From Patescibacteria group bacterium (GTDB lineage Bacteria; Patescibacteriota; Patescibacteriia; Patescibacteriales; UBA12465): 64,000 nucleotides of DNA. Position numbers and translations under genes: made by a program. Location of the stretch: the NCBI GenBank assembly GCA_041651355.1, contig JBAZJK010000001.1, positions 229,883 to 293,882 of the forward strand, read 5' to 3'. The notes beneath the pieces were generated by a model. The model was not told the origin of the DNA. It saw only the letters and a program-made list of their open reading frames with translations, and did no database searches. Of this stretch, positions 1-61,600 are shown piece after piece; the first letter of the stretch is position 1; every line of letters starts with the position of its first letter.

Positions 1-315
1 TAGGTTATGGCTAATGGCTAGATCAGGTTTTTCTTTTTTGAGGATTTTTTTGATTTGATAGTATTTATGGAGATTAAATAAGTTTATCATTTGCCAAAAT
101 AGGCGAAAGGCATAGCTATATTTGTGCAGTTCAGGAAAAAGGGAATTAAGCTCGTAGATGCTATATCGAATATTTATGGCTTTTTCTTGGCCCTTAGCTT
201 TCGTGGCCACAAAAAAAACCTCGTGGCCCTGATCAGTCAGGTCTTGGGCCATTTTTTGGGCGACTTTTTCCGCGCCGCCGCGCTGATAGAGGCTATTTAA
301 AATGGCGATTTTCAT
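1..315 (-). CDS. Glycosyltransferase family 4, N-terminal part (truncated by window edge)
   Basis: Reverse-complement from ATG at 315-313 reads MKIAILNSLYQRGGAEKVAQKMAQDLTDQGHEVFFVATK... with no stop to the window edge. This is a typical GT4 N-terminal Rossmann start. It is not in the ORF track because it is open-ended. Confidence 0.6.
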   Translation of the reverse strand, partial: MKIAILNSLYQRGGAEKVAQKMAQDLTDQGHEVFFVATKAKGQEKAINIRYSIYELNSLFPELHKYSYAFRLFWQMINLFNLHKYYQIKKILKKEKPDLAISHNL

Positions 316-322
316 AAATATA

Positions 323-1450
323 TTAATCAAACAACCCAAGTATCTGGTTGGCCATTAATCTAAGGTCATACTTATTCTCGGCTAATTTCCGAGCGGCTCG
401 GCTCATATTTTCCCTTTGTTTTTCATCACTTAAGATCATCTGAATTTTATTTTGTAAATCAGAAATATCCCCTGGTTCTATCAGATAGCCTTCTTGCTTA
501 TCAGAGAAGACGCTCCTTACGCCCGGCAGATTAGAAGCAATAACTGGCGTGCCACAGGCTAGAGCTTCGATTAGGACCAAGCCGAAGGCTTCGTTTCTGT
601 TAATCGAAGGCAGGACTAAAACCGCCGCGCCTTGGAAGGCTTTGATCAAATCATGTCCTCCCAGTTTGCCCAAGAACTTAACCTTATCTCTGATTCCTAA
701 TTCTGAAGCTAATTGTTCATATTGGGGCCGCAGTTCGCCCTCACCGCAGATTTTAAGGATGAATCTGTCATCTTTGAGACGGCTGAAAGCGGTAATCAGC
801 TTATCCACCCCTTTGAAATAATGGGCTCGATCTAAGCCGCCAACGAAGAGGACGCTGAGCTGATGATGGTTGATAAAATTATCACTGACGAATTTGATGA
901 TATTCCGGCTGGCGGCGATCAGTGGGTTTTCCGGTTCGCTTTTTAGGATATCGGGCTTGAATTTTTCCAGATCAACGCCGAAAGGGATTTCTCGGAATTT
1001 TTCTGGATACTTCTGATATATATCTTTTATCGAACTGTTTTTCAGGTAATCAAAACTGGAGCAGATTATCTTATCCGCTTTTTTAAACAGGGAAGAGCGC
1101 AGGAGCTTAGCCGGCCCGGCCGCTATTTTAAGGAGGGGCGAGTCGAAATCAACGTCCATGTGATAGTGGATTATCAGTTTAGTTTTTTTGTTGAAAATCT
1201 TAAAGAGCCAGACCAATTCGCTGGCACCGAAGAAAGGATAGTGCAGATAGATATAATCAAAACGCCCCAGTTGGCTAAGGAGCTGGGGTGAAAAAGCGCT
1301 ATGGCCGTAACGGAGCCAGGGTTTTAGATTGTCGGGATAGAAATTGGCTAGCTCGTACCGGCTGGAAATAATTTGTCCGATTTGGAAAGCGCTATTGCCG
1401 ATGCCGCCAGCATATGGCGGCCAAGCGCAGACCAACTGGGCGATTTTCAT
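323..1450 (-). CDS. Glycosyltransferase family 4 (GT-B fold)
   Basis: 375-aa ORF with an ATG start. The C-terminal half carries the GT4 signature (PSINRNEAFGLVLIEALACGTPVIAS...). Its start overlaps the upstream stop as ATGA at 1447-1450. Confidence 0.85.
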   Translation of the reverse strand: MKIAQLVCAWPPYAGGIGNSAFQIGQIISSRYELANFYPDNLKPWLRYGHSAFSPQLLSQLGRFDYIYLHYPFFGASELVWLFKIFNKKTKLIIHYHMDVDFDSPLLKIAAGPAKLLRSSLFKKADKIICSSFDYLKNSSIKDIYQKYPEKFREIPFGVDLEKFKPDILKSEPENPLIAASRNIIKFVSDNFINHHQLSVLFVGGLDRAHYFKGVDKLITAFSRLKDDRFILKICGEGELRPQYEQLASELGIRDKVKFLGKLGGHDLIKAFQGAAVLVLPSINRNEAFGLVLIEALACGTPVIASNLPGVRSVFSDKQEGYLIEPGDISDLQNKIQMILSDEKQRENMSRAARKLAENKYDLRLMANQILGLFD

Positions 1451-1773
1451 AGTTTATTATCCTGAGCTTTTTCCCGGACCAAGGTCGCCAGGTTGTTTTC
1501 TAGCTTGGCAAGCTTGAGACGGAGGCGGAAAAGCAGGTAGAAGAGGGTAATGACTGCCAGGTAGATTAAGAAGTTAATGCCTGAGCCGGAAAATCCTAGA
1601 TTATTAACCAAGCGGTCGATCGGCTTGATGAAAACGATGGCCAGACCGGCGATAATCCAAAAAATAAGCCAGAGAGCCAATTCATTCTTAGAGATACTAT
1701 CTTGCCGCCTTTGTTTGAGCAGGCGGCCGATGAAGAAAACAATGATTACTAAGGCGAGTATTTGTTGCCACAT
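1447..1773 (-). CDS. DUF2304-like small membrane protein
   Basis: 108 aa with 3-4 TM helices and a C-terminal amphipathic tail. It sits in the usual position between a GT2 and a GT4 gene and is translationally coupled on both sides. Confidence 0.65.
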   Translation of the reverse strand: MWQQILALVIIVFFIGRLLKQRRQDSISKNELALWLIFWIIAGLAIVFIKPIDRLVNNLGFSGSGINFLIYLAVITLFYLLFRLRLKLAKLENNLATLVREKAQDNKL

Positions 1774-1777
1774 ATTT

Positions 1778-2437
1778 TTATTTGATGATTTTTTGGATAA
1801 TCAGGTCTTTGATGATTCGTAATCCGCCGGAAAAATTTTGCCCGAATTCATGATAGGTGACGGTAATCGGCACTTCCTTGACTCTCAGCTTATGGCGGAA
1901 GGTCTCGACGATATATTCGCTACAATGAGCTTTGCCGTTTTGCCTGATCTTTATAGTCTGTGCCGCTTGGCGGCTCAAAGCCCGGAAACCGCTTTGCGGG
2001 TCGCTGAGGTTTACGCCTAAGAGCCGGTTGACGAAGCGGGCGAGCGGGATGATGATATTTTTTTTAACGAAAGGCAGATTGGATTTCTTACCCAAGAAGC
2101 GGGAGCCGAAGACCACATCCGCTTCATTGTTAATGATGGGAGCGATTACTTCCGGGATTTCAGATGCGGCGAACTGGTCGTCGGCATCAAAGTGGACGAT
2201 AATATCGGCCCCTAATTTCAGGGCATAGCTGGTGCCGGTCTGCAGGGCGCCGCCTTGGTCGAGGTTGACGCTATGGCGCAAGACTTTAACTCCGCTGCTT
2301 TTGGCGATATTATAGGTTTGATCTTTAGAACAATCGTCAACGATGACAATGTCGTCTACCAAGGGCTTGACCTTGTCTATGACCCTAAGGATCCGTTCGG
2401 CTTCATTATAGGCCGGAATGACGCAGATTACTTTCAT
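1778..2437 (-). CDS. Glycosyltransferase family 2 (polyprenol-phosphate sugar transferase-like)
   Basis: From the internal ATG (2437) the protein reads MKVICVIPAYNEAERI...VDDCSKD...FDADDQ, with the GT2 DxD-type motifs. The 50 codons upstream of that ATG in the track ORF overlap the preceding gene and are probably not translated. Confidence 0.85.
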   Translation of the reverse strand: MKVICVIPAYNEAERILRVIDKVKPLVDDIVIVDDCSKDQTYNIAKSSGVKVLRHSVNLDQGGALQTGTSYALKLGADIIVHFDADDQFAASEIPEVIAPIINNEADVVFGSRFLGKKSNLPFVKKNIIIPLARFVNRLLGVNLSDPQSGFRALSRQAAQTIKIRQNGKAHCSEYIVETFRHKLRVKEVPITVTYHEFGQNFSGGLRIIKDLIIQKIIK

Positions 2438-2439
2438 AG

Positions 2440-3516
2440 CTATAGTTTTAGCATTTCTTCCACTGATATTAATCCGTTTTTCAATTTTAGTAAAGCGTCT
2501 GCCAGCAGGGATTTTTTGTAATCCGGGCCGACCAGCTCGAACAGGGCGACCCTTAAGTCGTTGTCTGGATTTTGGCAGTGGCGGCAACCGCGGGTCTCAT
2601 AGACGAACTTCGGCAGGTGGGGACCGATCTGTTTATATTTATGGCTTAATAAGCTGATATCAGAGGCGTTAAGACTTCGCTTGTATAAGCATTTAGGGCA
2701 ATTCCTTTTGACCAGTCTTTGGCTGATGATCAGTTTTAAGTTTTCCTTAATTAGGCGGGCTGAACCGTGTTCTTTAAGCTCTTTAGCGACGTTAGCCGCT
2801 CTTTCCGCCTTCAGGCCGGCGAGGACTAAGCGGCCGCTGTGAGCCGCCTGGAGGGCTAGCGGCCAGATTTCCGGCTGGGATACTTCCATCAGGGCGATTA
2901 CCTCAGAATCGTGGCGCAATAGGCGTTCCAGGGTTTTTTGGTAGTTCGCCTTATTGGCTTGCTTGATCAGCATCTGGTTGATTCCTTTGATCTTTAACTC
3001 CAAAAAATTTTCTAAAGTATAAATATTCAAGTGTTCAGCATTTAAGTGGTTGAGCAGGGAGTATAGGCTTTGGGATAAGCCCTGGTTGAAGGGAGCACTG
3101 ACGATAATCAGGCCGGAGCGAGCTTTGAGGGTTTTTTTAATGAAGTTCAGGTCGGCCTTTTCTAAACCTAGACCGGTCAAGGGGCGGAGCTGCGGTTTCT
3201 TGTTGATGAAGTTGATGATTATTCTTTGGTTCTCGCCCTCCTTGATGGCGGTGATATAGAAAGTCCATTCCTTATCTCGATGCCTGATCTTATAGTATTT
3301 ATTAATCCCCAGGGTCTTGCCAGACAGGCTCATGATTTCTTGGAGGTCGGCTAAAAGGGCGGCTTGCCGTTTAGGCGATAAGCGCCACTCGTGCTTGTTC
3401 AAACCGAGCTCGTCTCCGGAGATGATAGTCCCATCCGGTCCGGATTCAATTATCAGATTCTTCAATCCCTGCCAATTAGCATAATGACAGAGATGCTTGA
3501 TAATTTTCGCCTGCAT
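2440..3516 (-). CDS. PilB/GspE-family secretion ATPase homolog with degenerate catalytic motifs
   Basis: It aligns along the whole GspE core, including the C-terminal CPKC...CRHC tetracysteine. Walker A is APFNQGLS instead of GPTGSGKT, Walker B is LMEVSQ, and both His-box histidines are lost (SGRLVLAGLKA). The start is set at ATG 3516; the track start at 3546 is a TTG. Confidence 0.7.
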   Translation of the reverse strand: MQAKIIKHLCHYANWQGLKNLIIESGPDGTIISGDELGLNKHEWRLSPKRQAALLADLQEIMSLSGKTLGINKYYKIRHRDKEWTFYITAIKEGENQRIIINFINKKPQLRPLTGLGLEKADLNFIKKTLKARSGLIIVSAPFNQGLSQSLYSLLNHLNAEHLNIYTLENFLELKIKGINQMLIKQANKANYQKTLERLLRHDSEVIALMEVSQPEIWPLALQAAHSGRLVLAGLKAERAANVAKELKEHGSARLIKENLKLIISQRLVKRNCPKCLYKRSLNASDISLLSHKYKQIGPHLPKFVYETRGCRHCQNPDNDLRVALFELVGPDYKKSLLADALLKLKNGLISVEEMLKL

Positions 3517-3664
3517 GTTCTTGGGTTCAAGCCGGTCTAAACGCAAAATAGGCCCTTAAACCTGGCTTGAGAATTTTTTTATATATTAGTCAATCTATCT
3601 TGATTATAGCATTATTTTATATTATGTTGAAATGTGTTAGAATTAAGGAGTAAAGAATAATTTT

Positions 3665-4081
3665 ATGTTATATTTTTCTAAAGTCTATAATTATCTGGCT
3701 GATTTTAGGGTTAATTTCAAGAAGTCTTTCAAGCTGGTTTTCGCTCCGAAGATCTTCAAGCTTTATCTGATCTTAACTCTGGTTTGGCAGATACTAGCTT
3801 GGTATATTTCCGTCTATGTCTACCGTAACCTGAGCGGCCGTTTATTAATCCTCCATTATAACGTCGACTTCGGCACCGACCTGATTGGCGCTCCGATTCG
3901 CGTTTTTGGCGGGCCCTTGTTTGCTTTATTGATATTTCTAGTTAACGCCGTCTTCGCTCTGAGCTTAAATCGTCGCCAGGCGGCTTCGTTTCTAAACCAT
4001 CTACTAATCGCCGGGGCCATGGTTTTAAATCTTTTTGTCCTAATCGCCCTCTTTACTATCTATCTAAGTAATTTCCGCTAA
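3665..4081 (+). CDS. Hypothetical membrane protein (3-4 TM)
   Basis: 138-aa ORF with an ATG start and hydrophobic segments. It lies directly upstream of mraY on the same strand. Confidence 0.5.
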   Translation: MLYFSKVYNYLADFRVNFKKSFKLVFAPKIFKLYLILTLVWQILAWYISVYVYRNLSGRLLILHYNVDFGTDLIGAPIRVFGGPLFALLIFLVNAVFALSLNRRQAASFLNHLLIAGAMVLNLFVLIALFTIYLSNFR

Positions 4082-4094
4082 CCGATTATCTTTT

Positions 4095-5144
4095 ATGTTG
4101 GAATTTAATCTGATAAAAATCCTTTTATTATCTACGGTGGCCTTTATCTTCGCTATGCTGGTGACGCCTATTCTGGCTCATTTTTTATATAAGTATAAAT
4201 TGGGCAAGAAGATCAGGAATAATGGCTCGACTCCGATATTTTCCAAGCTTCATGCCCATAAGACCGGCACGCCGACTATGGGCGGAGTCTTGATCTGGGG
4301 GACGGTCCTGATCTTTGCTTTGTTATTTTCCTTCTTGCCCAAGATAATCCCTGGCGATTTTTTCCAGCATCTTAACTTTCTTTCCCGAGCGGAGACCCTC
4401 CTGCCTTTAGGGGCTTTGGTAATCAGCGCCTTAATCGGTTTGTTCGACGATTGGCTTGATGTCAGAGGTAAAGGGGTTTTGGGCGGCGGCGGCTTAAAAT
4501 TAAGACATCGGCTCTTGATTTATACTCTGATTGCCATCGCGGGCGCTCTTTGGTTTTATTTCAAATTAGATTGGACGGTTTTCCATGTGCCGTTTTTAGG
4601 GAACTTCGAAATCGGTGCTTGGTATATCCCGATTTTCATTTTTATCATTGTGGCTACCTCTTTTTCCGTTAATGAGACGGACGGCTTGGACGGTTTAGCC
4701 GGCGGTACCTTGCTTTTGGCCTTTGCCGCTTATGGCATCATCGCTTTTTCCTTGGGCCGTTATGATTTAGCCACTTTCTGCGGCGTCATTATCGGCGCCC
4801 TTTTAGCCTTCTTATGGTTCAATATCCCGCCCGCCCGTTTTTATATGGGGGATACCGGAGCGATGAGTCTGGGGGTCACCCTAGGCATAATCGCGATGCT
4901 CACCAATAATGCTTTGCTCCTGGTCTTTATCGGCGCCATCTTCTTGGTTGAATCCGCTTCGGTGATTATCCAGACCCTGTCTAAGCGTTTGCGCCACAAG
5001 AAAGTTTTCCTATCGTCGCCTATCCATCATCATTTTCAAGCCATGGGTTGGCCAGAATCCAAGATTGTCATGCGTTTTTGGGTCCTGTCCGGATTAGGCG
5101 TGGCTTTAGCTTTGATTATATTTTTATTGGATAAGCAGTTTTAA
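4095..5144 (+). CDS. mraY: Phospho-N-acetylmuramoyl-pentapeptide transferase
   Basis: 349-aa polytopic protein with MraY motifs (NETDGLDGLAGG, FYMGDTGAMSLG, SSPIHHHF). Confidence 0.95.
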   Translation: MLEFNLIKILLLSTVAFIFAMLVTPILAHFLYKYKLGKKIRNNGSTPIFSKLHAHKTGTPTMGGVLIWGTVLIFALLFSFLPKIIPGDFFQHLNFLSRAETLLPLGALVISALIGLFDDWLDVRGKGVLGGGGLKLRHRLLIYTLIAIAGALWFYFKLDWTVFHVPFLGNFEIGAWYIPIFIFIIVATSFSVNETDGLDGLAGGTLLLAFAAYGIIAFSLGRYDLATFCGVIIGALLAFLWFNIPPARFYMGDTGAMSLGVTLGIIAMLTNNALLLVFIGAIFLVESASVIIQTLSKRLRHKKVFLSSPIHHHFQAMGWPESKIVMRFWVLSGLGVALALIIFLLDKQF

Positions 5145-5147
5145 ATA

Positions 5148-6278
5148 ATGTTTAAGAAACTTAGAAAGCAATTTTCCACCAAAGGCCGCCGTGAAGTCGA
5201 CAAAAACTTAATGGTCGCCGTTTTTATTTTGCTGATTTTTGGCCTAGTCATGCTATCAAGCGTGTCTTCAGTCGCCTCTTACGCCAAGTATGGCAATGCC
5301 TATCATTTTTTGTTCAAGCAGGTCATAGCCGTCCTGATCGGTCTCGGCCTCTTTTTTATTTTTTCCCGTTTGGATTACCATATCTGGCGCAAATATGCCG
5401 TGATGGCTCTCTTGGCTTCTTTATTTCTTCTTCTGCTGGTTTTTATCCCCGGTATCCGTTCAGAGAGCGGTACGGCTCGGAGCTGGATTAACATTTTCGG
5501 CTTTTCTTTCCAGCCGGCTGAGTTAGTGAAGCTGACTTTTTTAGTCTATCTAGCGACTTGGCTAGAAGCTAAAAAGGGACAGCTGAGCAGTTTTGAGGGC
5601 GGTTTTTTCCCCTTTATCGTTATTATGGGGGTTATCAGCGTTTTAATGATGGCTCAGCCTGATTTCGGCACCTTGTTTATTATCGCCTTTACTTCGATGG
5701 TCGTCTTTTTTGTGGGCGGAGCCAAGTTCAGCCATATTGTTATCATTCTGCTCTTGGCGGCGCTAATGATATTTTTAATGTTGAGCCTCAAATCTTCCTA
5801 TCGCGATGACCGTTTCAAATGCCTTAAGGATCCTGGTTATAGCCCGCAGGATAAATGCTATCAAATCAACCAATCTTTGATTGCCGTCGGTTCGGGTGGC
5901 TGGTTAGGCCGAGGTTTGGGCCAGAGCCGGCAGAAATTTCTCTACCTGCCGGAGGTTTGGAGCGATGCTATCTTTCCGATCATTGCCGAGGAGATCGGTT
6001 TCATCTTCTGTGTTCTCTTAATCCTGTTATTCTTCTTTATCTTCTATCGCGGCCTCATGATTGCGCGCGGAGCACCGGATGCTTTCGGTCGTTTACTGGC
6101 AACCGGTGTCGTGTCCTGGCTAGCGGTTCAGACTTTTTTAAATATCGGCGGCATGATTAATCTGATACCTATGACCGGCGTGCCTTTGCCTTTCATTTCG
6201 GCCGGCGGCACGGCCGTCTTATCAGCTTTAATCGGCATTGGCCTGCTTGCTAGCATCAGTCGCCAGGCTAAGCTTTAG
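5148..6278 (+). CDS. ftsW: SEDS-family peptidoglycan glycosyltransferase FtsW/RodA
   Basis: 376-aa, roughly 10-TM protein with SEDS motifs (QPAELVKL, QPDFGT, SDAIFPIIAEEIGF, PLPFISAGGT). It sits in the dcw block. Confidence 0.9.
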   Translation: MFKKLRKQFSTKGRREVDKNLMVAVFILLIFGLVMLSSVSSVASYAKYGNAYHFLFKQVIAVLIGLGLFFIFSRLDYHIWRKYAVMALLASLFLLLLVFIPGIRSESGTARSWINIFGFSFQPAELVKLTFLVYLATWLEAKKGQLSSFEGGFFPFIVIMGVISVLMMAQPDFGTLFIIAFTSMVVFFVGGAKFSHIVIILLLAALMIFLMLSLKSSYRDDRFKCLKDPGYSPQDKCYQINQSLIAVGSGGWLGRGLGQSRQKFLYLPEVWSDAIFPIIAEEIGFIFCVLLILLFFFIFYRGLMIARGAPDAFGRLLATGVVSWLAVQTFLNIGGMINLIPMTGVPLPFISAGGTAVLSALIGIGLLASISRQAKL

Positions 6279-6281
6279 TCT

Positions 6282-7370
6282 ATGTCTTTAAATGCAATAA
6301 AACCAAAGATAATCCTCTCGGGTGGCGGCACCATGGGTTCGGTTACGCCGCTTCTGATCCTGGCTGATGACCTTAAAGAGCGTTATGACTTTATTTTTGT
6401 CGGCACGACCAGCGGGGTGGAAAGGGAAATAGTCTCCAAGATAGCCTATCTGAAATACCAGCCGATCTTGAGCGGGAAGTGGCGGCGCTATTTTTCTTTT
6501 GCCAATCTTTGGGATCTTTTCAAGGTCATATTAGCTTTCTGTCAGTCGCTTTTTATCTTGTTCAAACTCAAACCAGCTTTGGTTATAAGCGCCGGTGCCT
6601 ATGTCTCCGTGCCTTTGGCTTGGGCGGCCTATTTCTTGAAGATTCCGGTTTTGATCCATCAGCAAGATGTCCGGCCCGGCTTAGCTAACCGCTTGATGGC
6701 GCGGACTGCCCGGGTGATTACCACGGTTTTTGAAAAGTCGGTTCAGGATTATGGCACGAAAGCGGTCTGGGTGGGCAACCCGATTCGAAACTTGGATTTG
6801 GAAAGCGCCCAGCAGGTCATCAAAGCCTTCCAGATTAAAGATAACCGCCCCCTGCTCTTGGCTTTAGGCGGCGGCACCGGTTCCCAGTCCTTGAACCAAT
6901 TGCTTGCAAACAGTTTAGAGGAGCTTACCTCATTCTGTCAGGTCATCCACATTACCGGGGCTAACAAGCAGCTAGTCCAATCGCTGTCTGATAATTATCA
7001 GTCATATGAATTCTTGCCTCACGAGAAGCTTTTAGCTTTGTTGTCTCGGGCTGATTTAGTTTTGTCTCGAGCCGGTTTAGGGGTACTGACGGAATTATCC
7101 AGTTTAGGCAAGCCGACCTTGCTCATGCCGATGCCTGCTTCCCATCAGGACGATAATGCTGATTATTTCGCTGAGCGCCAGGCCGCCCTGGTGTTAAGAG
7201 GTGAAGATTTGCGGCCGGAGCATCTGGTGGATAAAGTCAGACAGCTTCTATCTAACCATGAGCTCAGGGAGAACTTGAGCTATAATATCAAACGCGTTTT
7301 GCCGTCCGGAGCCAATGAGTCTTTGCGGCTCATCATTATCGGCTTGGCGGAAAATTCTCAGGGTAAATAA
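6282..7370 (+). CDS. murG: UDP-GlcNAc:lipid I N-acetylglucosaminyltransferase
   Basis: 362 aa with an N-terminal GGGTMGSVTP glycine loop and a C-terminal GT28 domain, placed between ftsW and murC. Confidence 0.9.
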   Translation: MSLNAIKPKIILSGGGTMGSVTPLLILADDLKERYDFIFVGTTSGVEREIVSKIAYLKYQPILSGKWRRYFSFANLWDLFKVILAFCQSLFILFKLKPALVISAGAYVSVPLAWAAYFLKIPVLIHQQDVRPGLANRLMARTARVITTVFEKSVQDYGTKAVWVGNPIRNLDLESAQQVIKAFQIKDNRPLLLALGGGTGSQSLNQLLANSLEELTSFCQVIHITGANKQLVQSLSDNYQSYEFLPHEKLLALLSRADLVLSRAGLGVLTELSSLGKPTLLMPMPASHQDDNADYFAERQAALVLRGEDLRPEHLVDKVRQLLSNHELRENLSYNIKRVLPSGANESLRLIIIGLAENSQGK

Positions 7371-7371
7371 G

Positions 7372-8763
7372 ATGATTAGGAAACAGAAAAAAAATAAATA
7401 TTATTTCATCGGCATCAAGGGCGTGGGCATGACTATGTTAGCCCAGTTTTTGCATCAGTCCGGCCAAGAAATTATCGGTTCGGATGTAGCCGAGACTTTT
7501 TTGACCGATCGGGTGTTGAAAAAAGAAAAAATTAAAGTATTCAGCCCCTTTAATATTAAGAATATTCCGGCCGCCCCAGATGTCATTGTCCATTCTTCCG
7601 CTTTTACGCCTAAGAATAATCCAGAATTGGCATTCATTGCGCAAAATCGGGAGCGATTTAAGTCCTCTAGGCTCTTGAGCTATGCTGAAGCCCTGGGAGA
7701 AATATTCAGCCAGCATCGCGGCTTGGCGGTCTGCGGCAGCCATGGCAAGACGACGACTTCGGCTTGGTTGGGCTATGTCTTATGGCGTTCTGGTTTGGGC
7801 CCCAAGGTTTTAGTCGGTTCTCGGGTGCCGCAATTTCATGATAGCAGCGCCCTCTTCGGCGCTAGTCGTTATTTTGTTGCCGAGGTCGATGAGTATCAGA
7901 ATAAGCTCCAGTATTTTTTTCCTTATGGCGTGATTTTGAATAATATTGAATATGATCATCCGGATTTTTTTAAGACGGAAGCCGACTATGTCCGAGTTTT
8001 TGCTGATTTTATCAAGAAGATTCCTAAACCGGGATTCTTGGTGGCCAATGAGGATGATAAGCAGATCAGGAAGATTAAGACTAAGAATCCTGGCCGCTAT
8101 TTCCCCTATCGCTTGAAAGAGGTGAAGGATGTCCGCTATCAGCGCGGTCTGACCAGTTTCAAGTTCCGGTCTTGGGGTGAATTTAGGATCCGTCTCCAGG
8201 GTGAACATAACATCTCTAACGCCTTAGCGGTTATTTTAAGCGCGCGGGTCTTGGGCGTGCCTTTGGTTAAGATTAAAAAATATCTGCTCGAGTTTAAAGG
8301 GACGGCGCGACGAGCCGAAGTCCTAGGGAAATATAGGGGGGCTTTGATTATTGATGATTATGCCCATCACCCGACAGAGATTAAAGCGACTTTAAAAGCT
8401 TTGAGGAATGCCTATCCTCGTCAAAATATCATCACCCTTTTTCATCCCCACACCTATACCCGGACCAAGGCTCTGTTTCGAGATTTTGCCGAGAGTTTCC
8501 GGGATAGCGATGAACTCTTTATTTTAGACATCTATGGTTCAGCGCGGGAGAAGCAGGGAGGAGTTTCTAGCCAGCAGTTAGCGCGAGCGGTCAGGTCTTT
8601 CAATCGCCAGAACGGTATTGAGCAAAAAGTTGGGAATATTCCCCAACTCGAAGAAGCGATTAGTTATTTTAAGAACCAGCTCGGATCGGGCGACCTCTTA
8701 GTCCTAATGGGCGCCGGTGATGTCTTCCGGGTGGGGGAGGGTTTGATAAAAGCTAAAGTTTAG
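7372..8763 (+). CDS. murC: UDP-N-acetylmuramate--L-alanine ligase
   Basis: From ATG 7372 it reads MIRKQKKNKYYFIGIKGVGMTMLA... with the Mur ligase P-loop GSHGKTTTS and DDYAHHPTE. The earlier track start at 7315 overlaps the murG end. Confidence 0.9.
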   Translation: MIRKQKKNKYYFIGIKGVGMTMLAQFLHQSGQEIIGSDVAETFLTDRVLKKEKIKVFSPFNIKNIPAAPDVIVHSSAFTPKNNPELAFIAQNRERFKSSRLLSYAEALGEIFSQHRGLAVCGSHGKTTTSAWLGYVLWRSGLGPKVLVGSRVPQFHDSSALFGASRYFVAEVDEYQNKLQYFFPYGVILNNIEYDHPDFFKTEADYVRVFADFIKKIPKPGFLVANEDDKQIRKIKTKNPGRYFPYRLKEVKDVRYQRGLTSFKFRSWGEFRIRLQGEHNISNALAVILSARVLGVPLVKIKKYLLEFKGTARRAEVLGKYRGALIIDDYAHHPTEIKATLKALRNAYPRQNIITLFHPHTYTRTKALFRDFAESFRDSDELFILDIYGSAREKQGGVSSQQLARAVRSFNRQNGIEQKVGNIPQLEEAISYFKNQLGSGDLLVLMGAGDVFRVGEGLIKAKV

Positions 8764-36445: not shown

Positions 36446-36477
36446 AAACTGGCGGGTTTTTAGACGCGCCAGTTTTT
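36446..36477 (+). terminator. Intrinsic terminator
   Basis: ACTGGCG-12nt-CGCCAGT stem followed by TTTTT. Confidence 0.65.
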
Positions 36478-36484
36478 GTCAGTT

Positions 36485-48293: not shown

Positions 48294-50399
48294 ATGAAGC
48301 CTAAAGTTTATCTACTCATTTTGCGTCTGGGGGTTTTCTTGTCCTTGCTTACCGTCTTTTTGGTTTTTAGGAACCTTCTGTTTCCTTATATCACCTCTAA
48401 GCAGCTGGTCTTAAATATCCTGATGGAATTCCTTTTGGCGATCACCTTGGTCTTCTGGTGGAAGTTTCCTAGCTACCGGCCGAAGAAGTCTTGGATTACT
48501 TGGGGGCTTATTTCTTATTTTATAGCTATTATTGCTTCCTTATTCGTCACAATCGACTTCAATCTTAGTTTCTGGGGTGATGCGGAAAGGATGCTGGGCT
48601 TATTCCATCTCTTCCATTTCTTGATCCTGTATTTCATCATCATTACGGCTTTCCGGGAAAAGAAGGATTGGAAACTGCTATTTCTCGCCTCCATTCTGGT
48701 GGCGGTGGTGGAAAGCTATTTCTGCCTCAAGGGGCAGCTCGCCTATGGCACTATCGGTAATACGGCTTATGTTAGCGGCTACTTGATCTTTAATCTTTTC
48801 TTCGCCGCCATTCTGTTTCTAAAATCCAAATCAAAGCTCTGGCGTTGGTTATATTTAATCCCGGTGGTGATTATGCTTTTTGCCTTCCGCCGGGCCAATA
48901 CTTCCGGGGCGATCATCGGTTTGGGCATTAGCGTTCTCTTATTCTTATTCTTATTCGGTTTCTTCCAGCGAAACAAAAAACTAAAATATTGGACTTTGGG
49001 AATAGCTTCAGTTTTGGTGTTAGGGGTGATTTTCGTCTTTTCCCAATCGCAATCCGATTGGTTCCAGTCAAGCACCCGTCTGCGTAATCTAACTTCCCAG
49101 AAGAGCACCTTCCAGACCCGCTTGGTTTCCTGGCGGGGTGCGGCGGCTGATTTCAAATTCCATCCGATCCTCGGGGTGGGTTATGGCAACTACGCTTCAG
49201 TTTTTGACCGTCAGTTCGATCCCAAGTTCTATAATTACAGCCGGACGGAAACCTATTTCGACCGGGCGCATAATAACCTGATCGATATCGTTACCACCAC
49301 CGGCCTCTTGGGTCTCCTGGCTTATCTCAGCATCTTCGTCGCCCTCTTCTATTATCTATTCCTCTACTTCAAGCCCATTCTCCGCGATTATCGTGGTGGC
49401 GAAGAGGGAAGCAGCCGCCAGTTAGCTGAAGTCTTCTTGATTGTGTCGCTGGTTGTTGCTTATTTTATCCAGAACCTAGCGGTCTTCGATTCTCTGGTGA
49501 CCTATATGGGGCTAATGATTATCTTGGCCTATGTATATTATCTGGTCCAAATTAAGCCCGAAGACGGGGAAGAAGAGGCTAGACCGGCGATCAAATCTAA
49601 GACGGAATATATCGCTCTGGGTTCTGTCATAATAGTCGCCTTGGTTTTTATCTATACTTTTAATGTCAGGCCCTGGCGTATGTTTGTAAATACGATAAAT
49701 AGTTATTCCCAGACTTTATCCGGGGACGTGGTTAATGGCCTTAACAGCTATCGTGAGGCTCTAGACAGTAATACCGGTCTGGAGCGGGACGCTCGTTTTT
49801 CCTTTATTGGCCTGATCTCGACTAATCCGGCCGTCCTTTCCTATCTGACTCCGGCTGAAGCCCAGGATACTCTCGCCTATACGGTTAGCCTAGCCCAGAA
49901 GAACTTGAGCTATAATGAAGAGGATAGCTTGGGGCAATTACAGCTAGCGCAAATCGCTGATCTGGGCGCTCGGGTGAATTATCAAGACCAGGTCCTGTTT
50001 GAGAGGTATTCTACTCTCTCTTTGAACGCGATCGACGCGGCGATAAAAGCTAGCCCGCGCCGGCCAACCCTATATTTCGCTAAGGCCCAATTGCTTTTAG
50101 CGCGGGGTGATAAAGAGGGGACGATTGAAAGTATGAAATATGGTATTAGTTTGAACCCGGAATATCCGGATGGGCATTGCCAGCTGGCCCTTATCTATAT
50201 CTTGTTAGACGATGACGAGGCTAGTTATCCTTATGTGACGAGTTGTTTGGATAATAAGGGACAATTCGCTTTCCCGGAGAAAGCTTTGACAATCTGGGCT
50301 AAGCACTATACCGCGCTTAAGGATACGGCTCATTTAGAGCAGATTAACGCCCAGCTGGAAGCTTACAAAGCTGATTCGCTGGCGCCAATACAACCCTAA
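48294..50399 (+). CDS. O-antigen ligase/Wzy_C-domain polytopic membrane protein with C-terminal TPR domain
   Basis: 701 aa with about 12 TM helices. It has the O-antigen-ligase-like loop (RRANTSGAIIGLGISVLLF ... GVGYGNY ... AHNNLID) and C-terminal TPR-like repeats. Confidence 0.75.
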   Translation: MKPKVYLLILRLGVFLSLLTVFLVFRNLLFPYITSKQLVLNILMEFLLAITLVFWWKFPSYRPKKSWITWGLISYFIAIIASLFVTIDFNLSFWGDAERMLGLFHLFHFLILYFIIITAFREKKDWKLLFLASILVAVVESYFCLKGQLAYGTIGNTAYVSGYLIFNLFFAAILFLKSKSKLWRWLYLIPVVIMLFAFRRANTSGAIIGLGISVLLFLFLFGFFQRNKKLKYWTLGIASVLVLGVIFVFSQSQSDWFQSSTRLRNLTSQKSTFQTRLVSWRGAAADFKFHPILGVGYGNYASVFDRQFDPKFYNYSRTETYFDRAHNNLIDIVTTTGLLGLLAYLSIFVALFYYLFLYFKPILRDYRGGEEGSSRQLAEVFLIVSLVVAYFIQNLAVFDSLVTYMGLMIILAYVYYLVQIKPEDGEEEARPAIKSKTEYIALGSVIIVALVFIYTFNVRPWRMFVNTINSYSQTLSGDVVNGLNSYREALDSNTGLERDARFSFIGLISTNPAVLSYLTPAEAQDTLAYTVSLAQKNLSYNEEDSLGQLQLAQIADLGARVNYQDQVLFERYSTLSLNAIDAAIKASPRRPTLYFAKAQLLLARGDKEGTIESMKYGISLNPEYPDGHCQLALIYILLDDDEASYPYVTSCLDNKGQFAFPEKALTIWAKHYTALKDTAHLEQINAQLEAYKADSLAPIQP

Positions 50400-55768: not shown

Positions 55769-56007
55769 GGATAAGGATTTGGTTTATAATGATTTTAAAA
55801 AGAGCGATTTTTAGTATCTGTCTATCTTATAATATTTATCTTTATTTGTCAATTATGTATTTATATATCTAATATTAGCTAATATTTATGAGTTACCAGC
55901 CTATTTTTCTGGTTCTTATTTTGCTTTTTATTCCTATAAATTTGGCTAATTCAGCGGGTCGGCCCTTGATTTTTTCGGCTTTTCCTTGTACTATGAAAAC
56001 GTTATTA

Positions 56008-56336
56008 GGGCAGGCAGGTGGTCGCTCTGTTTTTTCAAACAGGGAGGAAAGTCCGGACTTCGTAACGGTAGTGGGTAACACCCACCGGGAGTAATCCTAG
56101 GGCCAGTGCCACAGAGACAATACTAGCCTTCCTTCGGGCAGGCGAAAGGTGAAAAGTTACCGAGGCGCAAGCTATCGGTTTCGGCCGGCGGTGACGCCGT
56201 GTCCGCGGTAAACCCTACCGGAAGCAAGAGCAAACTGGGATTCGTCCCAAGACAAGTGGCTCGCTTGACCGGCCCAGTGATGGGTCGGCTAGATAAATGA
56301 CCATCCAACGACAGAATCCGGCTTATCGCTTGCCCT
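56008..56336 (+). ncRNA. rnpB: RNase P RNA, bacterial type A
   Basis: It has the universally conserved P4 strands GAGGAAAGTCCGG (about 56044) and ACAGAATCCGGCTTA (about 56311). P1 pairs GGGCAGGC (56008) with GCTTGCCC (56328-56335). GGTAAACCC and AGATAAATGACC elements are also present. Confidence 0.9.
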
Positions 56337-56363
56337 GGTAACCAGTTATCAATTAATTAATAT

Positions 56364-57779
56364 ATGAAAAAAATTGAATTGTTTTTTTCCTTTCTCTTCA
56401 TCCCCGTTGATCTTATCATGATCATATTGGGCGGGCTTTCTGCCTACTATCTGCGTTTTTCTAATTTTTCTACCGGCATCCGTCCGGTTATCTTCGATTT
56501 GCCTTTAGCAGAGTATTTTCCTTCTTTGTTGGTTATCGCTTTCATTTGGACTCTAGTCTTTATCTTTTCCGGTTTGTACCGGATCAAGAGCGCGCGCAAG
56601 CTCGCTCAAGAGCTGGCCAGGATATTCATGGCCGTCTCTACTGGTTTAGCCCTAGTGGCGATTTTGATATTCTTCCGCCGCGAATTATTTGATTCTCGTT
56701 TTATAGTGTTAGCGACCTGGTTCTTTACGATCATCTATGTCAGCTTGGCCCATATCTTTATCCGCTGGTTGCAGCGCAAGCTCTTCGCTTTAGGGGTCGG
56801 AGTCCATAAGGTGGTAATTGTCGGCAATTCCAAGACGGCTGACAACCTTATCTCGGAGTTCTCCAGCAATAAGCGGGCGGGCTATGAAGTGGTGAAAAGG
56901 GTACGCGATTTTTCTTTGGAGACCGCCCAAGAATTAGCTGAGTTCATCAAGACTAAAGAAGTCGATGAGATTATCCAAAGCGATCCCAACCTGACTAAGG
57001 TGGAAACCCTGCGTTTATATGACTTCGCGACCGATAATCATATTATTTTTAAATATGTCGCTGATCTATTGGAGGTGAAAGTACTGCGCACCGAAGTGGC
57101 CGAAGTTTTTGGCGTACCGATTGTCGAGGTTAAGAGGACGACGCTCGATGGTTGGGGTCATATTTCTAAGCGTTTCATGGATCTTATCTTGTCTGGACTT
57201 TTAATCATTATCTTTTCCCCGATATTGCTATTGATTGCTTTAGCAATCAAAGTTTCTTCACGCGGCCCGGTTTTTTTCTCCCGGCGCGATGACGGTTCTT
57301 ATCTGACCCGGATCGGAGCCGGCGGGGTGCCTTTTAAATATTTTAAGTTCCGTTCCATGATTCCTAACTCGGATAGCATGCGCTATAATGAGCTAGCAGA
57401 CAGGAATATCCGAACTGACGGTCCGATGGTTAAGATAAAAGACGATCCCCGGGTGACTAAGATCGGCCGTTTTATCCGGCGCTGGAGCTTGGATGAACTG
57501 CCGGAATTATTCTTAGTCTTTATCGGCCGCATGAGCTTGGTCGGTCCTCGTCCTCATTTGCCGGAAGAAGTAGCTAAATATGAGAATAACCACAAGAAGA
57601 CTTTGACGATCAAGCCCGGCATTACCGGCTTGGCCCAGATTTCTGGCCGCAGCGACCTCTTGTTTGAAGAAGAAGTCAAATTAGATGTCTATTATATTGA
57701 AAATTGGAGCTTGATGCTCGATATCTCTATTCTCCTAAAGACGCCTTTAGCTGTCTTGAAAAGACGCCAGGCGGAATAA
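56364..57779 (+). CDS. Polyprenyl-phosphate glycosyl-phosphotransferase (WbaP/bacterial sugar transferase family)
   Basis: 471 aa with N-terminal TM helices and a C-terminal sugar-transferase domain (GPVFF...KFRSM...DELPELF...MSLVGPRP). Confidence 0.85.
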   Translation: MKKIELFFSFLFIPVDLIMIILGGLSAYYLRFSNFSTGIRPVIFDLPLAEYFPSLLVIAFIWTLVFIFSGLYRIKSARKLAQELARIFMAVSTGLALVAILIFFRRELFDSRFIVLATWFFTIIYVSLAHIFIRWLQRKLFALGVGVHKVVIVGNSKTADNLISEFSSNKRAGYEVVKRVRDFSLETAQELAEFIKTKEVDEIIQSDPNLTKVETLRLYDFATDNHIIFKYVADLLEVKVLRTEVAEVFGVPIVEVKRTTLDGWGHISKRFMDLILSGLLIIIFSPILLLIALAIKVSSRGPVFFSRRDDGSYLTRIGAGGVPFKYFKFRSMIPNSDSMRYNELADRNIRTDGPMVKIKDDPRVTKIGRFIRRWSLDELPELFLVFIGRMSLVGPRPHLPEEVAKYENNHKKTLTIKPGITGLAQISGRSDLLFEEEVKLDVYYIENWSLMLDISILLKTPLAVLKRRQAE

Positions 57780-57786
57780 ATAATCT

Positions 57787-58905
57787 ATGCGAACTGCCTT
57801 GATCCATGACCATTTAGCCCAGGCCGGCGGCGCTGAAAAAGTGTTGCAGGTTTTTGCCGAGATGTTTCCCGCCGCCCCGATCTTCACCCTGCTTTATGAG
57901 AAGGATAATGTGGATAAGAATTTTTCTGGGCGGCAAATAGAAACATCGGTTATCCAAAAACTTCCGGGCGGAGTCAAGCATTACCAATGGTATTTATATT
58001 TCATGCCGATGGCGGTGGAATTTTTTGATCTCCGCTCCTATGACCTGGTCATTTCCGATACTAGCTCTTTTGCTAAGGGGGTAGTGACCATGCCTGATAC
58101 TTTGCATATCTGCTATTGCCATACGCCTACCCGCTACCTGTGGAGTGATACCCATCAGTATATCAATGAATTGAAATACGGCAGATGGCTGAAGAAGATC
58201 ATCTCTTTAGTTTTAAATAGTCTGCGGATCTGGGATTATAATGCGGCGCAACGGGTGGATTTATTTATTGCCAATTCTAAAACCGTCCAAGCGCGGATCA
58301 AGAAGTATTATCGCCGCGACAGCGTAGTCATCTATCCTCCGGTCGAGACTGATAAGTTCTATATTTCTGACTTAAGCCAGCAAACTACAGGCGAAAAGTA
58401 TTTTTTGATCGGCTGTCGCTTGGCGCCTTATAAGCGGGTGGATATCGTTATTGAAGCTTTTAAGAAACTAGGCCCGGACTATCGCCTGAAGATTTTCGGC
58501 GATGGCGTCGATATGAAGCGTTTGAAAAAGATTGCCGGCGAAGCGGCTAATATTGAATTTCTCGGCCGGGTCAACGAGACGGATAAGGCCAAGCTCTATA
58601 GCCAGGCCCAAGCTTTCATTAACCCTCAAGAAGAAGATTTCGGCATCACGCCGGTAGAATCGATGGCCTCCGGCCGGCCAGTTATCGCCTATCAGAAGGG
58701 CGGGGCGACAGAAACCATCATCGAAGGGAAGACCGGTTTATTCTTCCAGGAACAAAGCGCTACTGATATCATTAAAAACATCCAAGCCTTTTCCGGCTAT
58801 AATTGGGATAGCCAGGCAATCAGGGAGCATGCTCAACAGTTCTCCGTAGCTAATTTTAAGGAGCAGATAAATAATTTTATTGCCAGTCACAAGACGAATG
58901 CTTAA
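57787..58905 (+). CDS. Glycosyltransferase family 4
   Basis: 372 aa. It has an N-terminal GGAEKV motif, and the C-terminal half carries the GT4 signature (EEDFGITPVESMASGRPVIA). Confidence 0.85.
   Translation: MRTALIHDHLAQAGGAEKVLQVFAEMFPAAPIFTLLYEKDNVDKNFSGRQIETSVIQKLPGGVKHYQWYLYFMPMAVEFFDLRSYDLVISDTSSFAKGVVTMPDTLHICYCHTPTRYLWSDTHQYINELKYGRWLKKIISLVLNSLRIWDYNAAQRVDLFIANSKTVQARIKKYYRRDSVVIYPPVETDKFYISDLSQQTTGEKYFLIGCRLAPYKRVDIVIEAFKKLGPDYRLKIFGDGVDMKRLKKIAGEAANIEFLGRVNETDKAKLYSQAQAFINPQEEDFGITPVESMASGRPVIAYQKGGATETIIEGKTGLFFQEQSATDIIKNIQAFSGYNWDSQAIREHAQQFSVANFKEQINNFIASHKTNA

Positions 58906-61516: not shown

Positions 61517-61600
<84 letters not shown>

Follow-up and report, generated by a model that had tools for sequence, protein, structure and literature searches.

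Type IV pilus and type II secretion systems are driven by assembly ATPases of the PilB/GspE/PilF family (Pfam T2SSE, PF00437), and an offshoot of this family is considered here. The gene lies on the minus strand of a 64,000-nucleotide stretch of DNA (positions 229,883 to 293,882 of contig JBAZJK010000001.1, assembly GCA_041651355.1; hereafter the window) from a Patescibacteria group bacterium, and it encodes a PilB-derived pseudo-ATPase, comprising the N2D and C-terminal domain (CTD) core of such an enzyme. The pseudo-ATPase resembles PilB, GspE and PilF in sequence, in its N2D+CTD fold, in the LG linker and in a tetracysteine (Cys4) zinc knuckle. Unlike them, it is devoid of the N1/MshEN domain, its catalytic motifs are replaced or degraded, it adjoins a glycosyltransferase (GT) gene, and it has no pilus or secretion genes nearby. 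Another point of comparison is ComGA, a short competence-pilus ATPase without N1 that is encoded in a pilus operon and still has its catalytic motifs. The pseudo-ATPase has a similar size and the same N2D+CTD-only architecture, but its catalytic motifs are lost and its score falls far under the 300-bit cut-off of the ComGA model.

A third relevant system is PilB of Myxococcus xanthus, where the nucleotide-free protein signals exopolysaccharide production independently of pilus assembly and has been proposed as the active signalling state (PMC5544727). This is a case of a PilB-type protein with an effect on polysaccharide that does not require ATP hydrolysis, and the pseudo-ATPase would permanently resemble the nucleotide-free form. 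In M. xanthus, however, PilB moonlights while remaining a working motor, its signalling runs through the Dif pathway, and it is not encoded with glycosyltransferases. A fourth comparison concerns the neighbouring genes, since the GacI/GacJ pair of Streptococcus pyogenes and the PpgS/Rv3632 pair of Mycobacterium tuberculosis have the same two domains, GT2 and DUF2304, that occur side by side in the window. GacJ and Rv3632 attach to GacI and PpgS, the GT2 enzymes of their pairs, and greatly raise their activity; with GacJ, the Km for undecaprenyl phosphate drops from 18.7 to 1.1 uM (bioRxiv 10.1101/180810). No ATPase-like partner is described for those pairs in that work. Searches of full-text literature turned up no account of such a degenerate PilB/GspE paralog, or of its association with a GT operon or with the division and cell wall (dcw) cluster in bacteria of the candidate phyla radiation (CPR). 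The reading favoured below, at even confidence, is that the pseudo-ATPase arose in place from pilB and now serves as a non-catalytic scaffold or regulator for the glycosyltransferases with which it is co-transcribed.

Fold and motif state of the window protein

The minus-strand open reading frame (ORF) spans 2440–3546, with its stop end at 2440 and candidate starts at TTG 3546 and ATG 3516. The ATG was chosen because every ortholog begins at the same position (MPxKII...), and the product is thus 358 amino acids long. The Pfam T2SSE model matched it with 124.7 bits (E=4.5e-36) against a curated cut-off of 24.9 bits, which places it in the family. Among structures in the PDB, the top sequence match was M. 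xanthus PilB (3jc8, E=2.9e-25); Vibrio cholerae EpsE/GspE and Geobacter PilB came next. An AlphaFold2 model (pLDDT 83.2, pTM 0.73) was matched by Foldseek to PilF, PilB and EpsE with E values of 1e-26 to 1e-27 and TM scores of 0.73–0.82, the best being PilF 5oiu_C, superposed on the N2D+CTD core. The N1/MshEN domain of full-length PilB is missing. None of the NCBIfam models reached its own cut-off; those for PilB (TIGR02538) and GspE (TIGR02533/NF007755) scored 122–134 bits against cut-offs of 617–676, and that for ComGA (NF041000) scored 88 bits.

Residue-by-residue alignments with PilB-type ATPases and with orthologs gave the motif states listed in Table 1. As read from these alignments, the residues that PilB-type ATPases need for ATP binding and hydrolysis are replaced, with a putative loss of activity. 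The change of the P-loop Lys to Leu is common to all 6 close orthologs that make up the window subclade, and the PQDGR motif of PilB has become GINKYY. What does persist is acidic or zinc-binding: both Glu residues of the Asp box (Glu169 and Glu173), the Glu of Walker B (Glu211), where Gly, Arg and Asp are all gone, and the full tetracysteine motif (CPKC...CRHC).

The original prediction had proposed homology to the core of type II/IV secretion ATPases, substitution of Walker A, Asp box, Walker B and His box, and an intact C-terminal Cys4 knuckle. All of this stands. The homology is borne out by the Pfam and PDB matches and by the model, which superposes on the PilF/PilB/EpsE core with a TM score of up to 0.82, while the alignments reproduce each listed change, recover both CPKC and CRHC, and show that the motifs had not been misplaced.

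The pseudo-ATPase family and its maintenance

A profile search against 1.84 billion representatives, clustered at 50% identity, found about 55 clusters of 270–390-aa proteins that match the pseudo-ATPase profile end to end. In all, the family numbers at least 56 diverse clusters, and their hosts are Falkowbacteria-like Patescibacteria. This host clade is narrow, with MraY 70–90% identical across loci; the named relatives of the window MraY come from metagenome-assembled genomes (MAGs) labelled Falkowbacteria or 'Patescibacteria group', one protein under the latter label being 100% identical to it, and a scan of genome contigs returned solely one Falkowbacteria MAG locus (L008). One family member carries a Planctomycetes label (NCBI GCA_025453315.1, locus L018), which is doubtful, as its MraY is 70% identical to that of the window. 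The same locus has a 607-aa protein (3838–5661, minus strand) with a weak pilin-type N_methyl match, inserted between murG and murC. A profile built from 48 family sequences mostly retrieves canonical PilBs. Among its top matches, a set of proteins of about 1000 aa was rejected as unrelated to the family because they are tandem, apparently natural, fusions of two canonical PilB cores (P0075, P0076, P0078, P0079, P0082–P0086, P0091, P0094–P0096 and P0113), and both halves had intact catalytic motifs in the four fusions inspected (P0075, P0076, P0078 and P0079). In the databases, one family member is called 'ATPase, T2SS/T4P/T4SS family' (P0002) and others 'PilB-like' or 'TadA'. Such annotations imply a catalytic role in pili or secretion, and the motif losses argue against it.

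Site counts over 56 family members show how far the degeneration extends. The arginine fingers and PQDGR are gone from most, with Arg at a given position in just 4–9 proteins; the second His of the His box is lost in 56/56, and the first is Arg in 50/56. The Walker A Lys follows another pattern, being kept in 37 members, replaced by Arg in 8 and by a non-basic residue in 11, which include all 6 of the window subclade. The P-loop retains GK[ST] in 37 of the 56, and its second Gly is invariant (56/56). Cys4 is kept in 21. Motifs conserved throughout the family are GRLV, INQRL, the P-loop Gly and KxKxGLI. On a neighbour-joining (NJ) tree the family was monophyletic with respect to four canonical PilBs; Cys4 disappeared in a single event and the P-loop Lys in no fewer than two or three, with a non-basic residue taking its place; some lineages also lack the C-terminal 45 aa.

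Could the protein nevertheless still be an NTPase or nucleotide sensor, working through non-canonical residues, with Glu169, Glu173, Glu211 and the former P-loop forming a different ligand site? The three acidic residues are indeed retained, the former P-loop (SAPFNQGLS) is among the two most conserved segments of the subclade, and both the invariant Gly and the frequent GK[ST] would fit. In the window subclade, however, the P-loop Lys is Leu, and both arginine fingers, both His residues and the Walker B context are gone. Single substitutions at such positions reportedly abolish activity in PilB, PilT and GspE. Such a residual enzyme or sensor is improbable, and non-canonical nucleotide binding in the window subclade is unlikely.

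Selection offers a second view of the protein. Five orthologs at 48–74% identity, one of them from a Candidatus Falkowbacteria MAG, share the degenerate motifs, and SAPFNQGLS (residues 140–148, that is, Ser140 and the former P-loop) belongs to the pair of segments that vary least across the six close orthologs. Within this subclade the proportion of synonymous differences (pS) is 0.71–0.93, so synonymous sites are saturated, the nonsynonymous proportion (pN) is 0.17–0.38, and the ORFs are intact. In 14 less diverged, unsaturated pairs from other subclades, the ratio of nonsynonymous to synonymous rates (dN/dS) was 0.04–0.15, and that of the neighbouring GT2 gene was 0.03–0.09. None of the 47 loci in the pseudo-ATPase clan is without the gene. 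Among 71 loci there is a sole candidate frameshift or pseudogene (L062, 61–1121), where the gene is split into two overlapping ORFs with database products of 210 and 96 aa; an assembly error is possible there. Judged by these substitution patterns, the pseudo-ATPase is under strong purifying selection across the Falkowbacteria-like clade, a maintained protein and not a decaying gene, and it probably has a new, non-enzymatic job.

That the gene is a maintained pseudo-enzyme had been the original prediction, and the degenerate motifs shared by orthologs, the well-preserved former P-loop, the dN/dS values and the retention across 47 loci uphold it. The opposite view, that this is a slowly decaying relic whose frame stays open merely for translational coupling to GT2, can point to the way in which family members have step by step lost the N1 domain, the catalytic motifs, Cys4 and, in some lineages, the C-terminal 45 aa, to one clan without the gene, and to the fact that this is the fastest-evolving gene of the cluster, with 25–37% identity where MraY has 70–81%. 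A dN/dS of 0.04–0.15 nevertheless implies selection on the amino-acid sequence and not merely on an open frame, family-wide motifs exist, and losses are absent from the 47-locus clan, with the one candidate frameshift noted above. A functionless relic is thus largely refuted and highly improbable.

Origin of the gene between two envelope operons

The genomic position of the gene is conserved. In 12/12 diverse members, a run consisting of a 137–153-aa membrane protein, mraY, ftsW, murG and murC (followed by an ABC exporter, murB and alaS in its longer form) is divergent from a second run of pseudo-ATPase, GT2, (DUF2304), GT4 and GT4, and the order also holds in about 50/56 further loci. Further out, an epimerase, an S8 peptidase, another GT4, MreB and a response regulator are often found. 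A metagenome scan seeded with GT2 added 80 more loci, which were surveyed with hidden Markov models (HMMs) built from our own alignments. Wherever the flank was long enough, the gene of the small membrane protein lay directly upstream of mraY (43/43 loci); DUF2304 followed GT2 in 60/60, and the first GT4 occurred in 44/44.

The slot between the two operons was found in three states, counted over 56 loci with enough upstream sequence. It is filled by the short degenerate protein in about 46, and one locus has a different context. In five it is empty (L023, L045, L050, L053 and L096), the membrane-protein gene lying 30–46 nt from GT2. In four it holds a full-length PilB of 578–587 aa (L072, L081, L084 and L085), with fragments of such a gene also seen in L080 and L092. 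This in-slot PilB is canonical throughout, with MshEN, GPTGSGKT, EDPVE or EDPIE, GEIRD, TGHLVLSTLHT and Cys4, and it scores 452.7 bits against T2SSE. It is 26% identical to the window protein (residues 3–358 of the latter against 178–575 of PilB), and on the family HMM the in-slot form heads 118 canonical PilBs, outscoring the 114 others, themselves preselected as best matches (261 vs 249). A 368-aa ORF beside the canonical PilB in L081 was considered as a related gene and rejected, being an unrelated secreted protein.

An NJ tree computed from 669 concatenated columns of MraY, GT2 and DUF2304 for 55 loci separated the three states, each of them a clan: the canonical-PilB clan had bootstrap support of 98, the empty-slot clan 100 and the pseudo-ATPase clan 90. 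The kinship of the in-slot PilB was judged by HMM score, synteny and this tree of host genes. The direction is from canonical to degenerate, because regain of the N1 domain and of every catalytic motif is implausible. We conclude from these comparisons that the pseudo-ATPase arose once, in place, from a full-length pilB between the dcw cluster and the GT operon, and that the gene was lost once.

An ancestral pilB also lends itself to another explanation, in which a residual pilus role continues. The dead PilB might dock on PilC/PilM or co-assemble with a catalytic PilB encoded elsewhere, as an inhibitor, placeholder or regulatory subunit, and its position beside the glycosyltransferases would be merely inherited from the pilB locus. 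This reading takes in the original suggestion of a regulator of a catalytic paralog encoded elsewhere. The real PilB in the same slot of a sister lineage shows a location ancestral to the catalytic loss, and the protein still has the N2D-CTD architecture and the LG linker, as well as, in the window subclade, the zinc knuckle. One preprint also reports good conservation of type IV pili in Patescibacteria (bioRxiv 10.1101/2024.11.25.624915). The gene content around the pseudo-ATPase tells against this explanation. The 64-kb window has no second T2SSE-like ORF, and a Pfam survey of its ORFs of at least 120 aa found no PilC, PilM, pilin or prepilin peptidase domains, so that platform, pilin and secretin genes (PilC/GspF, PilM, pilins) are not co-encoded within 64 kb, in line with the original remark that pilin and secretion-platform genes are absent nearby. 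No second T2SSE ORF, and hence no PilB paralog, was found within 6–10 kb in any of 99 related loci. The zinc knuckle and part of the C-terminus were, moreover, later lost in many lineages, and the distance to GT2 changed as described below. A residual pilus role is less likely than not, but it is the main rival reading.

The glycosyltransferase operon and the cell envelope

In the window, the pseudo-ATPase gene heads a tight minus-strand run of GT2, DUF2304, GT4 and GT4, an arrangement that had been predicted and that the ORF coordinates confirm. The gap from the pseudo-ATPase to GT2 is 2 nt, that from GT2 to DUF2304 is 4 nt, which makes these two a directly adjacent pair of the GacI/GacJ type, and that between the two GT4 genes is 7 nt. 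Over 71 loci, the distance from the pseudo-ATPase stop to the GT2 start has a median of 2 nt, with a 4-nt overlap in 25 and a gap of 0–20 nt in 38, whereas canonical PilB lies 113–117, 535 or 808 nt from GT2. This shrinkage after degeneration suggests that the pseudo-ATPase gene was drawn into the transcription and translation unit of the glycosyltransferases, a recruitment that a residual pilus role would not lead one to expect. A mirror-tree correlation of the pseudo-ATPase with GT2 (partial r 0.73) is weak and non-independent, and was not used as support.

As for the product of the operon, the best NCBIfam match of GT2 is PpgS, at 155.3 bits against a 370-bit cut-off and thus below equivalog level; by this score GT2 is a predicted relative of PpgS and not an ortholog of known specificity. 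PpgS is the mycobacterial polyprenyl-phospho-GalNAc synthase. By homology, the operon most likely makes a polyprenyl-phosphate-linked sugar and further glycosylated envelope products, and it adjoins lipid II genes that would draw on the same carrier lipid.

Considering all of this, the favoured sequence of events runs as follows. A full-length pilB sat between mraY-ftsW-murG-murC and a GacI/GacJ-type GT operon. It then lost the N1/MshEN domain, and its catalytic motifs decayed while purifying selection kept the core fold; the gene became packed against GT2, either overlapping it by 4 nt or lying a few nucleotides away. The resulting protein, held in a state like that of a nucleotide-free ATPase, could act as a non-catalytic ring, scaffold or regulator for GT2, its DUF2304 activator and the two GT4 enzymes, and might tune the output of envelope glycoconjugates that use the polyprenyl-phosphate carrier of lipid II. 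A non-catalytic partner of a glycosylation machine had been one of the original proposals, and it is plausible on the fixed gene order and the short distance to GT2. A more specific form of this idea is tentative: the dead ring derived from PilB may belong to a GacI/GacJ-type synthase complex as a subunit of its own, structural or regulatory, and may couple the making of envelope glycan to that of lipid II, perhaps as a gate on the shared carrier.

Several observations weigh against a non-catalytic scaffold or regulator for the glycosyltransferases. Many family members may still bind nucleotide, given GK[ST] in 37/56, though not those of the window subclade. The canonical PilB in the slot of the sister lineage makes the neighbourhood older than the loss of catalysis, so that the synteny, taken by itself, could be a historical remnant. 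In one clan the slot is empty although the GT operon and the dcw cluster are both present, so the pseudo-ATPase is dispensable for the GT and dcw enzymes, which work without it; it would then be an accessory factor and not an essential one. Finally, all trees are NJ trees, unrooted or midpoint-rooted, and the protein tree does not put the in-slot PilB sister to the pseudo-ATPase family.

The divergent side of the locus begins with a 138-aa membrane protein that had no match in Pfam or NCBIfam. It evolves about as fast as the pseudo-ATPase (28–37% identity where MraY has 70–81%), and its mirror-tree correlation with the latter (0.70) is likewise weak, non-independent and not used as support. 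The region between the two operons contains a block that is nearly invariant even though synonymous sites are saturated among the same orthologs. Toward the pseudo-ATPase, on the minus strand, it has a promoter-like site, TCAACA-16-TGCTATAAT, which is overlapped by another on the plus strand, TTTATA-16-TAGAAT, and the core ACACATTTTAA...TG(n)TATAAT is found again in distant loci. Both operons are predicted to be transcribed from one overlapping divergent promoter region.

Table 1. Coordinates of the pseudo-ATPase, its motifs and the adjoining features in the window
Feature	Position	Strand	Details
Pseudo-ATPase gene	2440..3516	-	358 aa; PilB/GspE core of N2D, CTD and Zn knuckle
Former N2D arginine-finger motif, residues 31-38	3403..3426	-	RxRxDG (PilB) replaced by IISGDELG; alignments, site counts
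Walker A, residues 141-148	3073..3096	-	GPTGSGKT (PilB) replaced by APFNQGLS; Lys to Leu, Thr to Ser
Asp box, residues 169-173	2998..3012	-	EDPVE replaced by ENFLE; Asp to Asn, Pro to Phe
Walker B, residues 210-214	2875..2889	-	GEIRD replaced by MEVSQ (ALMEVSQ in context)
His box, residues 227-237	2806..2838	-	TGHLVLSTLHT replaced by SGRLVLAGLKA; His to Arg, His to Lys
Tetracysteine, first half, residues 273-276	2689..2700	-	CPKC, intact
Tetracysteine, second half, residues 311-314	2575..2586	-	CRHC, intact
C-terminal segment ADALLKLKNGLISVEE	2455..2502	-	most conserved stretch of the window subclade
GT2, GacI/PpgS-like (polyprenyl-phosphate sugar synthase type)	1778..2437	-	Pfam Glycos_transf_2 PF00535, E=1.5e-26
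DUF2304 small membrane protein (GacJ/Rv3632 family)	1447..1773	-	Pfam PF10066, E=4.6e-18
First GT4	323..1450	-	Pfam Glycos_transf_1, E=2.5e-43; ATGA overlap with DUF2304
Second GT4	1..315	-	N-terminal part, runs off the window; translated, it matches the second GT4 of L001 at the N-terminus
Intergenic block of about 75 nt, near-invariant	3572..3644	.	alignment of five orthologous intergenic regions, promoter scan
138-aa three-transmembrane protein, directly upstream of mraY	3665..4081	+	divergent; conserved motif LHYNVDFG(I/T)D, C-terminal YLINFR
mraY-ftsW-murG-murC (lipid II pathway, same polyprenyl-phosphate carrier)	4095..8763	+	ORFs; same genes with Pfam labels in all related loci

Other features were noted in the window and in related loci. 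An ABC exporter (ABC_membrane and ABC_tran; 8868–10637, plus strand) lies between murC and murB, as it does in L005, L012, L013 and L017, and is a candidate transporter of a lipid-linked glycan or of lipid II. A second envelope-glycan set occupies 48294–50399 and 56364–58905 (plus strand), comprising a TPR-repeat protein with Wzy_C (O-antigen ligase-like), and a GT4 preceded by a Bac_transf phosphoglycosyl transferase. In one sublineage, an opposite-strand gene of 141–147 aa is found between GT2 and DUF2304 (L009 9989–10417, L013 11799–12242, L019 11824–12249). Elsewhere in the window are an 820-aa protein with two ATP-grasp ligase modules (36476–38938, plus strand), the first ATP-grasp_4 with LAL_C2 and the second a D-Ala-D-Ala ligase C-terminal domain, a class A RNase P RNA (56006–56341, plus strand; 223.7 bits) and one tRNA (61517–61600, minus strand).

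Other families have examples of motor ATPases that gave rise to pseudo-enzymes. The protein described here is a pseudo-enzyme that branched off from the superfamily of secretion and pilus ATPases, possibly the first for PilB/GspE, and if it were a dedicated subunit for the glycosyltransferases, it would mark the first time that a motor ATPase of secretion or pili was exapted to work in a glycosylation machine as a pseudo-enzyme. One and the same locus offers a natural series, from an ancestral canonical pilB through a dead but conserved core to an empty slot, and with it a ready-made experiment on how an enzyme changes into a pseudo-enzyme and on the new job that the latter takes up. The series bears, moreover, on the cell envelope of CPR bacteria.

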